The position numbers and the translations under genes are program-made. Shown in pieces: positions 25,917 to 31,487 of a stretch of DNA of 64,000 nt. The stretch is from an uncultured Hymenobacter sp. (GTDB lineage: Bacteria > Bacteroidota > Bacteroidia > Cytophagales > Hymenobacteraceae): contig CAJYPK010000053.1 of NCBI GenBank assembly GCA_913776615.1, positions 9,778 through 73,777 of the forward strand, read 5' to 3'. Below the pieces are notes generated by a model. The model saw only the letters and a program-made list of their open reading frames with translations, was not told where the DNA came from and did not search any database. Numbering within the stretch: position 1 is the first letter of the stretch; every line of letters starts with the position of its first letter.

Positions 25917-29018
<3,102 letters not shown>

Positions 29019-29024
29019 TCGAAG

Positions 29025-29050
29025 AAAGGTGGGCTGAATAGCCCGCCTTT
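29025..29050. terminator. Terminator between uvrA and the convergent Abi gene
   Basis: aaaggtgggct-gaat-agcccgccttt. Confidence 0.75.
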
Positions 29051-29052
29051 CC

Positions 29053-29790
29053 TTATGTCGCTTGTGGGTACCTCCTACCGATAGTGCGTAGCGTATCGGG
29101 CACCCGGTCGGCCTCAGTTAGCCAAATAGGTAGCGCAGGGTCTAGCCAGCCCAGCAATTCCAGAATGGTAGTGTGTAACTGCTGTAGCTGGCTGAAACAC
29201 AAAGCATTCTTAGAATGCTTTTGGAAGCATAGTGGCTCATAATGGTACACCCTGTTGCGGAAGGTTCGAATATCCTTCAGTTTGTTGTAAATCGTCTCAC
29301 GCTCAGTACCATAAGGTCGATGCGGGAAGGCACGAAGCAGACGTTTTTGTAGTAGACCAAAATAAGTGCGGCTGAAAAGAGTTGTCCAAAAACCGAAATT
29401 CAGGTCGGCGATTAAAACTGAACCGCTAGTCGGCGGATAATTCCAACGTTCTTCAAAGTCGCGGATAGCAGTTTCCACCATGCGTAATATTTTATCATTA
29501 GTAGTTGTTTTGCCTGTTCGATAATCTTTGTTTGTCAAGCGGTTGTCTATCATAAAGCCTCGCCGCTGTTCTAGGAGCCAGTTGACAGAATTAAAATGCT
29601 GTTCTAGAACTTCATGTAAGGCATTGCGAAGCGATACTTCTAAAAAAGATAGAGGGATGTAAAAGCTTTGTGCAAGTCGTAAGTTATCAAGGTATAACAG
29701 CAGCGCCTTTTGCTCGTCGCCACCCGACGCCCTTAAGTAAGGAATAAGCCGAGGAGTAGATAAAAATTTTTGGGCGTTTTGAAACAACAT
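29053..29790 (-). CDS. Abi_2 / AbiD-AbiF-like HEPN ribonuclease (abortive-infection family)
   Basis: LSTPRLIPY...LYLDNLRL...LEVSLRNA...LNFGFW...FRNRVYHYEP. Intact HEPN RxxxxH motif. About 40-42% GC in spot counts, well below the flanking genes. Confidence 0.85.
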   Translation of the reverse strand: MLFQNAQKFLSTPRLIPYLRASGGDEQKALLLYLDNLRLAQSFYIPLSFLEVSLRNALHEVLEQHFNSVNWLLEQRRGFMIDNRLTNKDYRTGKTTTNDKILRMVETAIRDFEERWNYPPTSGSVLIADLNFGFWTTLFSRTYFGLLQKRLLRAFPHRPYGTERETIYNKLKDIRTFRNRVYHYEPLCFQKHSKNALCFSQLQQLHTTILELLGWLDPALPIWLTEADRVPDTLRTIGRRYPQAT

Positions 29791-29814
29791 TTCTTTTTAG
29801 TTCGTTACTTTGCA

Positions 29815-29919
29815 GCGTAATATTCGGTCACTCAGCTGGGCAGCCTGCGAAGGTAAGTCCTTGAAATCGGATGAAAGAAACGAGCGGACATCCTTCACCG
29901 GGTGCCCGCTCTCTTTTTT
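29815..29919 (+). ncRNA. Candidate ~100-nt small RNA divergent from the Abi-like gene
   Basis: Near-consensus promoter TTACTTTG (29805-29812) upstream. Terminator-like gagcggacatcc-ttcacc-gggtgcccgctc-tctttttt (29882-29919). Expression is inferred, not shown. Confidence 0.45.
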
Positions 29920-29970
29920 GGTATGGGCAGTACCGTCATATCTCAGGGTATGCTCGAGTAGATAATGGCT

Positions 29971-30026
29971 GGCAAGGGCCACACCGGGCGGTTTTTGGCT
30001 GAGGAGCTGAAAACCAGTCAGTACGT
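29971..30026 (+). repeat. 56-bp direct repeat, right copy (orphan uvrA 3' end, continuing GTA TAG)
   Basis: Identical to 28959-29014. Its flanks still encode AGKGHTGRFLAEELKTSQYV* with synonymous differences (GCT/GCC, GTA/GTG, TAG/TAA). Confidence 0.98.
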
Positions 30027-30069
30027 ATAGTGTATTCGCCGTAATTTCGCTTCTCTAATTCCCCGTGCC

Positions 30070-30366
30070 ATGACTACCGCCCAGATTCTGTTTGAGCAGT
30101 ATAAAGTGTTGCCCAAGCGCATTCAGCAGCAATTCAAGAAGCTTATCGTGGAGGCTGACCGGCCGGCTGCTCGTCCGGCTACCCCAGCCACTGGCGACGA
30201 AGAGGACACGGATACCCACGTTAGTATTTCGTTGGAGGCGTTGCACAGTAGTATTGAGCAAGTAAAGCTGCTTAAAGCAGGTAAGCTGCAAACGCAGGAT
30301 GCTCGTACTATGCTGGCCGAAGTGCAGGCAGAGCTTGATGCCGAAGATGTTGCTAAAGGCAAGTAA
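30070..30366 (+). CDS. Putative type II antitoxin
   Basis: 98-aa acidic ORF directly upstream of a RelE-like gene. TAATTTCG promoter-like element at 30042-30049. GC lower than the host. Confidence 0.6.
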   Translation: MTTAQILFEQYKVLPKRIQQQFKKLIVEADRPAARPATPATGDEEDTDTHVSISLEALHSSIEQVKLLKAGKLQTQDARTMLAEVQAELDAEDVAKGK

Positions 30367-30380
30367 GTCAAGCAGGTAGC

Positions 30381-30689
30381 TTGAGTAGTATGCTGATTGA
30401 CAGTGCCTTCAGGTCTCTGCCAGGGGAGATGGCGGCGCTATTCACTCGCCCGGAGGCCGACTCTACTCAAGTTCAAAGCTTGGGCGCGGGTCTTTATAAA
30501 ATCCGCTTAGCCAGCGCTAGCAAGGGCGGTGGTAAAAGCGGTGTCTTCCGCGTTATCACTTACTACGTGGAGCAGACGGCCGACGGTGAAATAGTCTATC
30601 TGGTAACGATTTATGATAAATCGGAAGCCGCCAGCATCACTAAGGATGAACTGGTGAAGTTACTGCAACAGGAACTGCCACCCGCGTAA
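30381..30689 (+). CDS. RelE/HigB-like toxin, N-terminus possibly degenerate
   Basis: SLGAGLYKIRLASASKGGGKSGVFRVITYY...VYLVTIYDKSEAASI resembles the RelE-like GKSGGxRV family. No convincing full-length start is present. Confidence 0.7.
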   Translation: MSSMLIDSAFRSLPGEMAALFTRPEADSTQVQSLGAGLYKIRLASASKGGGKSGVFRVITYYVEQTADGEIVYLVTIYDKSEAASITKDELVKLLQQELPPA

Positions 30690-30730
30690 AAGACAGCGCC
30701 TGCCCTGCGTAGGGTAGGCGCTGTCTTTTA
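30687..30730. terminator. Bidirectional terminator
   Basis: taaaagacagcgcctgccct / agggtaggcgctgtctttta. Confidence 0.9.
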
Positions 30731-30743
30731 CGCGGGTGGCTTG

Positions 30744-31487
30744 CTAAGCTCCCGTTGGCCCGAAGCGCTCGGTGAGAATCATTGCCGGTGCCAGCCCAGC
30801 GGCTTGTAAGCCGTTAGCCACGCTTTCGACCAGGCCCGTGGGGCCACACACGAAGGCTTGTGGCTTAGTCTCCCCAAACCTTGCCACCACTTCAGCCAGC
30901 ATGGCTGCGTCGATGCGGCGGTGGTAGCCGGCCCAGCCGGGCGGGGTCTGGCGGGTATAGTCGAGCAGTAGCGTGAAGCCGTCGTCGGCCTGCGCCATTG
31001 CTTCTAATTCAGCGCGGTAAATAACTTCCTCGGGTGTGCGGACGCTGAACAGCAGCACAGCCGGCGGGCGCAGGCCCAGCCGCTGCCGGTGGCGCAGTAT
31101 GGCCATGAGCGGCACCACGCCCGAGCCGCCGCCCACGAGCAGTAGGGGCGGCGCGCCGGGCTCGCCCCGCCACACGAAATAGCCGCCGATGGGGCCGCGT
31201 ACCTCCAGCTGGTCGCCCACGGCCACGCCCTCGTCGAGGTAGCCCGACACCTCGCCGTCGGGGATGATTTCGACGGTCAACTCGATCTCGCCGGTTTGCT
31301 CGGGCGGGGAAGCGATGGAGTAGCTGCGCTCGGCCTGGTAGCCACCCTCGGCGGTGAGGCGCAGGTCGTAGTGCTGGCCGGCGAGGTGGGGCGTGAACTG
31401 CGGGAGGCTGAGAATGAAGGTTTTGACGTGCGGCGTCTCGGGCCGGATGGCCGTGACGGTGGCTAGTTGCCAGGTTACTTTACTCAT
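30744..31487 (-). CDS. Ferredoxin-NADP reductase-like FAD/NAD(P)-binding oxidoreductase
   Basis: AGQHYDLRL, RSYSIAS, GEVSGYL, GGGSGVVP, FVCGP motifs. Confidence 0.92.
   Translation of the reverse strand: MSKVTWQLATVTAIRPETPHVKTFILSLPQFTPHLAGQHYDLRLTAEGGYQAERSYSIASPPEQTGEIELTVEIIPDGEVSGYLDEGVAVGDQLEVRGPIGGYFVWRGEPGAPPLLLVGGGSGVVPLMAILRHRQRLGLRPPAVLLFSVRTPEEVIYRAELEAMAQADDGFTLLLDYTRQTPPGWAGYHRRIDAAMLAEVVARFGETKPQAFVCGPTGLVESVANGLQAAGLAPAMILTERFGPTGA

Follow-up and report, generated by a model that had tools for sequence, protein, structure and literature searches.

The HEPN toxin AbiF has its active site blocked by an upstream non-coding RNA (ncRNA), which binds to each monomer (PMC12737573; PMC13064643). 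The RNA RCd22 neutralizes AbiFCd of C. difficile phi027 (PMC12373285), and the AbiF-AbiFr system is that of the Prevotellaceae protein PbAbiF, PDB 8VZ6, in the work of Zilberzwige-Tal et al. (Cell 2025), as far as it is cited in PMC12373285 and PMC12737573. AbiF is seen as an ancestor of Cas13, and its ncRNA as a forerunner of the CRISPR RNA (crRNA) (PMC12737573). PD-T4-5, a plasmid gene that confers abortive-infection defense in E. coli, was described as 'a distant relative of AbiF/D' and as toxin-antitoxin-like (Vassallo et al. 2022, PMC9519451). Here we describe a PD-T4-5-like gene (the Abi gene), encoding the HEPN protein P0001, and a small RNA gene divergent from it in DNA of an uncultured Hymenobacter sp. 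(assembly GCA_913776615.1, contig CAJYPK010000053.1, positions 9,778 to 73,777 of the forward strand). This whole stretch of 64,000 nt is the window, to which the coordinates refer unless another locus is named.

The RNA gene is a conserved, covarying structure on the plus strand, RNA and protein gene are inherited and transferred as one unit, and P0001 has an intact Rx4H HEPN motif and the PbAbiF fold. With a probability of about 0.7, we propose that the pair is a type III toxin-antitoxin / abortive-infection system of the AbiF kind in which the RNA would act as the antitoxin. The original prediction, made from the letters of 29791-29970, had suggested a divergent RNA antitoxin for a distant Abi_2 clade; a covarying RNA on the opposite strand does accompany essentially every homologue of the gene, and the protein fold matches PbAbiF. 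It had also named two computational checks, which were carried out. The Infernal search with the abiF RNA model gave no match, so that the RNA is not detectable as a member of that family, and the de novo covariation model of the regions upstream of homologues gave strong covariation on the opposite strand.

Structure of the RNA gene

The flagged region of 180 nt extends from the Abi start codon to the right copy of a direct repeat. The following elements of the pair were recognized:

29053-29790, minus strand: 245-aa HEPN protein P0001, Abi_2 / PD-T4-5-like clade, predicted RNase toxin (open reading frame (ORF) and family matches)
29778-29781, plus strand: possible -33 TTTG within Abi codons (sequence reading)
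29805-29812, plus strand: -7 box TTACTTTG of the small-RNA gene, 7/8 against the Bacteroidota TAnnTTTG (sequence reading)
29817-29919, plus strand: predicted small RNA of about 100-103 nt, putative 5' end at 29817-29820, 3' end in the U tract
29822-29872, plus strand: core motif of the RNA (compensatory changes, shared architecture)
29822-29828 with 29866-29872, plus strand: P1 helix (compensatory changes)
29829-29837, plus strand: 5' internal loop CACUCAGCU
29838-29860, plus strand: P2 hairpin (compensatory changes)
29848-29855, minus strand: candidate -7 box TACCTTCG of the Abi mRNA, 7/8, inside P2 of the RNA gene (sequence reading)
29861-29865, plus strand: 3' internal loop UUGAA
29873-29881, plus strand: single-stranded linker GAAAGAAAC (invariant in Hymenobacter RNAs)
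29882-29919, plus strand: intrinsic terminator, stem gagcggacatcc (29882-29893) / gggtgcccgctc (29900-29911), loop 29894-29899
29912-29919, plus strand: U tract of the terminator, tctttttt

The near-consensus promoter that had been predicted on the plus strand is present, and a spacer of 14 nt separates it from the Abi start codon (14-17 nt in the Hymenobacter clade). The 7/8 box alone could be due to chance; the whole element is more than chance. The fold of the 103-nt RNA has a z-score of -2.75, and 2 of 200 shuffled sequences were as stable.

The terminator stem lies where a 12-bp stem had been predicted, but not all of it pairs: 11 of the 12 positions do so, with one A.C mismatch and one G.U pair. 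The mismatch is probably why a simple terminator scan did not list this stem. It carries compensatory changes in two relatives (L023 and L015), and a third (L020) has a different hairpin at the same place. The linker upstream is A-rich, which makes the terminator potentially bidirectional; its sequence is invariant in 8/8 Hymenobacter RNAs, except for C/U at the last position.

The tail was correctly predicted to end at 29919. Conservation ends exactly at this T tract in all relatives, whatever sequence follows, so the 47 nt at 29920-29966 are outside the conserved element. The prediction of a transcript unit of about 100 nt with no credible ORF was also sound, the region being crossed by spurious, unconserved ORFs only. 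Those at 29810-29965 (plus strand), 29871-30002 (plus strand) and 29797-29982 (minus strand) extend beyond the terminator, where the DNA is not conserved, have no counterpart in relatives and were rejected.

Conservation and covariation within Hymenobacter

Homologues of P0001 are present in 10 of 165 Hymenobacter genomes, with 37-90% identity. Every Hymenobacter locus examined that retains the upstream region intact and encodes a protein of at least 38% identity conserves the stretch of about 130 nt that runs from the start codon to the hairpin and T tract. RNAalifold analysis of eight Hymenobacter sequences returned P1, a composite P2 and the terminator, with 35 pairs, eight of which have compensatory changes. 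In this alignment 98.7% of the cells are paired, and eight pairs have double changes, against 0-2 in controls whose partners were slid by 1-3 columns. The invariant U.G and G.U pairs place the RNA on the plus strand, divergent from the gene, because a transcript of the opposite strand would have A.C mismatches in their stead.

A covariance model built from the Hymenobacter RNAs (R1) scored 112 bits at the window RNA and recognized no second copy in the 6.08-Mb genome, where its next match (30 bits) is a terminator. The terminator half of R1 draws other terminators, so the model is useful only above about 90 bits. Across 151 Hymenobacter genomes, the RNA was found only in genomes with the gene and always adjacent to it. 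The Abi homologue of genome G019 (L002 1831-2571, the same as L016) has one in-frame TGA; the adjoining RNA is intact and has the top R1 score, 119.7 bits.

These data bear on the idea that no functional RNA exists: the conserved 130 nt would then consist of promoter DNA and of a bidirectional terminator, which would protect a toxic gene against read-in transcription. With its A-rich 5' flank and its U tract, the hairpin could stop transcription from either side, and in four genomes (G019, G144, G166 and G127) it abuts the end of a convergent oxidoreductase gene. However, compensatory changes and strand-specific G-U pairs are also found in P1 and P2, which are not terminator elements, the conserved promoter box points into the element, and two RNA types found at other loci (C and D) are each a single promoter-hairpin-U-tail unit with a conserved loop. 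We therefore regard this explanation as very improbable.

Related RNAs at other loci

A total of 104 usable homologue loci were obtained from a 400-genome sample of the phylum together with 80 loci from GTDB species genomes. At 101 of them, the strand opposite to the gene carries an RNA of one of four related types. A TAnnTTTG box with at most one mismatch, followed by a terminator 35-150 nt downstream, occurs on the RNA strand of 95/104 loci; the same test on the gene strand gave 31. Directly 5' of the RNA, the box is perfect in most homologous loci.

The dominant type B has the consensus GUrAUGCUUGGU-cAAGCCUC-[P2 hairpin]-CGUA-ACCAAGU-UUAAGA-terminator. Its 61 distinct sequences, from distant relatives, form two helices with 97% of the cells paired. 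Compensatory changes affect 11 of the 12 pairs (148 cells), a level reached by 0 of 500 shuffles, and slid controls had at most 18 cells. The closing pair is G.U in 45 of the 61 sequences, which again places the RNA opposite to the gene. The order P1, loop, P2, loop is common to the window RNA and these 61 relatives. Two Hymenobacter loci, L019 and L020, carry AACUCCUCU, which links the window loop CACUCAGCU to that of type C.

A second covariance model (R2) was built from type-B sequences only, with no Hymenobacter sequence. Run without filters, it matched 9/9 Hymenobacter loci at the expected site and strand, and all of its top 14 matches, these nine included, are at the expected RNA site of the searched loci. 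In the window it matched 29815-29878 (plus strand), and at L020 it scored 23 bits. A search of 150 genomes of the phylum gave matches in five, including two strong ones with no Abi neighbor.

In the protein tree, the RNA types follow the protein clades and not the organisms, with nine label changes compared with 30.7 after shuffling. Kin share labels, so this pattern is read solely as co-inheritance of the gene and the RNA as a unit. The co-diversification of RNA and protein would also suit an RNA that assists the HEPN protein as a positive cofactor, guide or sensor, in the way that crRNA serves Cas13, with the complex as the active defense unit, and the proposed descent of Cas13 and crRNA from AbiF and its ncRNA (PMC12737573) points the same way. 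Nevertheless, the RNA shows no visible variable or spacer-like segment and is conserved over its full length within clades, and in both AbiF systems studied the RNA inhibits (PMC12373285; PMC13064643). A cofactor role is thus improbable, and the antitoxin role remains our preferred reading.

Plasmid homologues were found in Pseudomonas, Acetobacter, Streptomyces, Xanthomonas and E. coli, and at all five an RNA on the opposite strand ends in a terminator; a pyrimidine-rich loop was seen by eye in the first four. A Bacteroides plasmid homologue has a type-B RNA, also on the opposite strand and ending in a terminator. The E. coli plasmid is pEC1066 (NZ_MG587003.1, L143 440-703), whose gene is PD-T4-5-like (PADLOC, 8.6e-16). 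Just upstream of this gene, on the opposite strand, there is a TATAAT box followed by a stretch of about 95 nt that closes with a strong terminator, and the record leaves this segment unannotated.

Five loci come from metagenome-assembled genomes (MAGs) labeled Lachnospiraceae (L055), Acidobacteriota (L063), Oscillospiraceae (L065), Pyrinomonadaceae (L076) and a cyanobacterium (L100), and they keep TAnnTTTG boxes. The sequence downstream of the L100 RNA is near-identical by eye to that of a Bacteroidia MAG (L069). The Bacteroidota-type boxes of these five loci and the resemblance of L100 to L069 suggest mis-binned contigs or very recent transfer. The phage collection gave no DNA match to the RNA and six weak protein matches, and hence no sign of phage-borne decoy copies. 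A repeat search at the locus found no ToxI-like tandem repeats.

The HEPN protein

P0001 matched the PADLOC family PD-T4-5 (PDLC04038) at 6.5e-12 over residues 9-218, a model of 309 positions that has no curated cut-off, and AbiD at 1e-3. The match with Pfam Abi_2 (4e-4, 21.1 bits) is below the curated cut-off of 25.6 bits. PD-T4-5 was matched by 19/19 homologues (best 5e-24), and Abi_2 by 16/19 at E <=0.01. In the alignment of these 19 homologues, E51, R55, N56 and R178-N-R-x-x-H183, the HEPN Rx4H motif, are invariant.

As a single sequence, P0001 had no match in the PDB. The profile of 19 sequences had 8VZ6 (PbAbiF) as its sole significant match, a weak one (E 0.0078), in which Rx4H is aligned with RNSCCH. 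The AlphaFold2 model of P0001 has a predicted local distance difference test score (pLDDT) of 93. A Foldseek search of the PDB with this model returned 8VZ6_A, 'PbAbiF dimer bound to ncRNA', with probability 1.0, a query TM-score (TMq) of 0.60 and 16% identity; all other PDB matches had E >1. As this is the single meaningful match, P0001, as modeled, has the AbiF fold yet belongs to a distant clade.

Relation to the abiF RNA motif

The abiF RNA motif, RF03085 in Rfam, was reportedly described by Weinberg et al. in 2017. Its model has a gathering score of 37 bits and scored 44.9 and 35.4 bits at two positive controls (L126 and L127). It gave no match at E <=10 in window 28500-30800, none at E <=1 in 20 homologous loci, and none at E <=10 in a 101-nt stretch of L053, which has a type-C RNA. 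The window RNA is thus not a detectable member of RF03085. Other Rfam matches (SNORA5, CopA and leader families) were dismissed as terminator-like noise, and none is at the RNA.

In controls from the same phylum, the canonical abiF consensus is CCCGCC-A-AGC-CUCUCAACGAU-GCU-CAAAUC-GGCGGG-U, followed by a U tract. At L126, the canonical RNA and a 298-aa ORF share a strand, and the U tail of the RNA ends 11 nt before the ATG of this ORF, a close PbAbiF homologue (8VZ6, E 1e-68; PADLOC AbiD, 1e-79). RF03085 RNAs share the strand of their gene, whereas all RNAs recognized in the 104 loci are opposite to it. As to the loops, AAGCCUC is invariant in type B as the 5' internal loop, facing CGUA as the 3' loop, and the window has CACUCAGCU and UUGAA.

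The family nevertheless shares with RF03085 a conserved loop rich in pyrimidines with the heptamer AGCCUCU (in the dominant type B), a GC-rich closing helix, the U tail and the association with Abi_2. Judging from these sequence features, the two are probably related.

Promoters and proposed mechanism

Two features of the AbiF type of type III system are found here, namely an Rx4H HEPN protein with the AbiF fold and a conserved structured ncRNA linked to its gene. In the mechanism that we propose by analogy, the RNA would bind the HEPN dimer through the conserved internal loop between P1 and P2 and block the active site. A strong, separate promoter would keep the RNA in excess over a toxin that would itself be weakly expressed. 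When a phage shuts off host transcription or degrades RNA, the antitoxin would be depleted, and the freed RNase would then cut cellular or phage RNA and abort the infection.

The minus-strand box that had been predicted to drive the Abi gene is present at 29848-29855, and a perfect TATCTTTG occupies the homologous position in four relatives (L015, L047, L017 and L018). On the other strand, the linker GAAAGAAAC is a possible -33-like TTTC for this promoter, 17-21 nt from the box. The predicted antisense overlap of the two 5' ends, of about 25 nt, is plausible for the Hymenobacter clade because the box is perfect in these four relatives. It does not extend to the family, since many type-B and type-D loci have a perfect gene-strand box in the spacer, with the two promoters back to back. 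In the Hymenobacter clade, a toxin promoter inside the RNA gene may add transcriptional interference and the antisense overlap of about 25 nt as a second layer of repression.

Taken further, this arrangement could mean that the RNA is purely cis-acting, as in type I systems: it would occlude the toxin promoter and pair with the toxin transcript at the 5' ends, and would never bind the protein. The best candidate for the toxin promoter in Hymenobacter does lie inside the RNA gene, with the overlap that follows from it, and just 14 nt separate the RNA promoter from the start codon. However, at L052, L057, L062, L067, L077, L109, L117 and others, the gene-strand box is in the spacer and the transcripts would not overlap, and it is at such loci that the RNA structure is even more strongly conserved. 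Moreover, the helices covary and the internal loop is invariant (A17-C22 and G38-A40 in A4), features that suit an RNA that binds protein and are needless for antisense pairing, and the toxin is an enzyme of 245 aa, not a small membrane peptide as in type I systems. We consider a purely cis-acting RNA unlikely and favor the protein-binding antitoxin.

Several observations weigh against an antitoxin of the AbiF kind. The RF03085 model does not match this RNA, and R2 does not match canonical abiF RNAs; as the models fail to cross-detect, the homology of the two RNA families is argued from the shared heptamer and from the architecture compared by eye. In RF03085 the AGC of the heptamer is paired and CUCU opens the terminal loop, whereas in type B the heptamer forms an internal loop; given this different structural place and the lack of cross-detection, the RNA was not filed under RF03085. 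The window loop CACUCAGCU has diverged from the family consensus, and R2 scores the window at just 13.8 bits. P0001 itself is remotely related to AbiF (16% identity, and a weak hhalign match). Finally, two type-B RNAs, L135 1501-1554 (plus strand, 61 bits) and L136 1501-1553 (minus strand, 49 bits), have no Abi homologue beside them, so the linkage of RNA and gene is not absolute.

The L135 RNA adjoins a truncated MscS-like ORF. That of L136 diverges back to back from an unrelated ORF of 323 aa (P0002), for which neither Pfam nor PADLOC gave a match. Possibly these are orphan antitoxins, or else the RNA has another protein as its partner there.

We lean, by a small margin, towards a broader proposal, namely that the whole PD-T4-5-like branch is two-component and comes with an uncatalogued family of divergent RNA antitoxins. 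It would cover hundreds of genes, on chromosomes and plasmids of Bacteroidota, Pseudomonadota and Actinomycetota, that are annotated as single-gene 'Abi family protein'. Its RNAs would be distantly related to the abiF motif, having switched strand and acquired a promoter of their own. If this is true, 'single-gene' defense of the PD-T4-5 type is really a type III toxin-antitoxin system, and the AbiF/Cas13 lineage holds a second, independent way to set the ratio of RNA to protein.

AbiF with its ncRNA was recognized in 2025 as a type III toxin-antitoxin system and likely Cas13 ancestor, and the present finding would extend the AbiF/RNA principle to a separate, much more widespread PD-T4-5-like clade. 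In this clade the RNA is on the opposite strand, and its family is missing from Rfam. Such genes would be toxic or misbehave if cloned without the upstream opposite-strand region, and defense finders that score them as single-gene systems would miss half the system. The co-diversification of four RNA types makes the family a natural series for work on the evolution of RNA-HEPN recognition.

Genomic context at the uvrA hotspot

The cassette lies directly downstream of uvrA, where these features were recognized:

25917-29018, plus strand: uvrA (UvrA domains, Pfam)
28955-29017, plus strand: true uvrA 3' end, left copy of a 63-nt direct repeat (repeat search)
29025-29050: 11-bp hairpin between the convergent stop codons of uvrA and Abi, left end of the cassette (sequence reading)
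29967-30029, plus strand: right copy of the uvrA 3' end, where a second, older cassette begins, outside the RNA (repeat search)

The two copies of the repeat, at a distance of 1012 bp, agree at 61 of 63 positions and flank a stretch of low G+C content (39-48% after uvrA, compared with about 62% in uvrA). Part of the hairpin at 29025-29050 was listed by the terminator scan. With the HEPN protein gene and the back-to-back RNA gene, the segment 29053-29919 forms a two-gene cassette of about 0.9 kb that is complete in itself. According to blastn, the Abi cassette directly follows the uvrA stop codon in 7/8 other Hymenobacter loci.

Blastn also showed collinearity with genome G144 (L014) over window 28300-29919, resuming at 30751; the gap indicates that 29920-30750 is a second unit. 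This unit contains 47 nt, the copy of the uvrA end, a 98-aa ORF, a RelE-like ORF and a 30-nt inverted repeat. The ORFs occupy 30070-30689. The first, of 98 aa, has no Pfam match, and the second, of 102 aa, matches PF06296 (E 6.6e-6, 26.8 bits) just below the cut-off of 27. They probably form a toxin-antitoxin pair, and the same two ORFs follow the Abi cassette in another Hymenobacter genome (L023). The inverted repeat at 30677-30740, 97% complementary, lies between the RelE-like gene and a convergent FAD/NAD oxidoreductase gene. It resembles a strong terminator that acts in both directions, and it draws spurious matches of Rfam SNORA5 and R1.

The uvrA 3' end behaves as a hotspot that gathers small toxin cassettes. 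No recombinase was found within the cassettes there (window 28955-30750). The region between the Abi gene and the repeat is now explained, and the mobile unit at the hotspot is exactly the gene plus the RNA.

Comparison with known systems

The literature search found no described divergent RNA beside Abi_2 or PD-T4-5 genes, although Zilberzwige-Tal et al. 2025 may cover this layout. ToxIN and AbiQ likewise combine a protein RNase toxin with a structured RNA that neutralizes it, and cause abortive infection. In contrast, ToxI consists of tandem repeats encoded upstream of the toxin gene on its strand, and the toxin, whose fold is not HEPN, processes this RNA.

PD-T4-5 is the best protein-family match of P0001, which is shorter than the 309-position model. 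It is reported as a single gene, and the parts of its description available to us mention no RNA partner (PMC9519451). P0001 falls under PD-T4-5 in PADLOC, and canonical AbiF under AbiD.

The closest systems are AbiF-AbiFr and AbiFCd-RCd22. These too have an Abi_2-superfamily HEPN protein with Rx4H and the same fold. Beside its gene they likewise have a conserved RNA, a small hairpin that contains an internal loop and has a terminator of its own; they are mobile and plasmid-borne, as is the family described here. P0001 has 245 aa, compared with about 300 aa in AbiF, and about 16% identity with it. The RNA described here, of about 100 nt, is longer in P2 and has a separate terminator compared with the AbiF RNAs. 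Its gene is on the opposite strand with its own promoter, whereas in the known systems the RNA is upstream on the same strand and co-transcribed with the toxin gene, as at L126 and for RCd22 (PMC12373285). In canonical AbiF systems, the excess of RNA arises through read-through of the terminator, while here it would be provided by the separate promoter.

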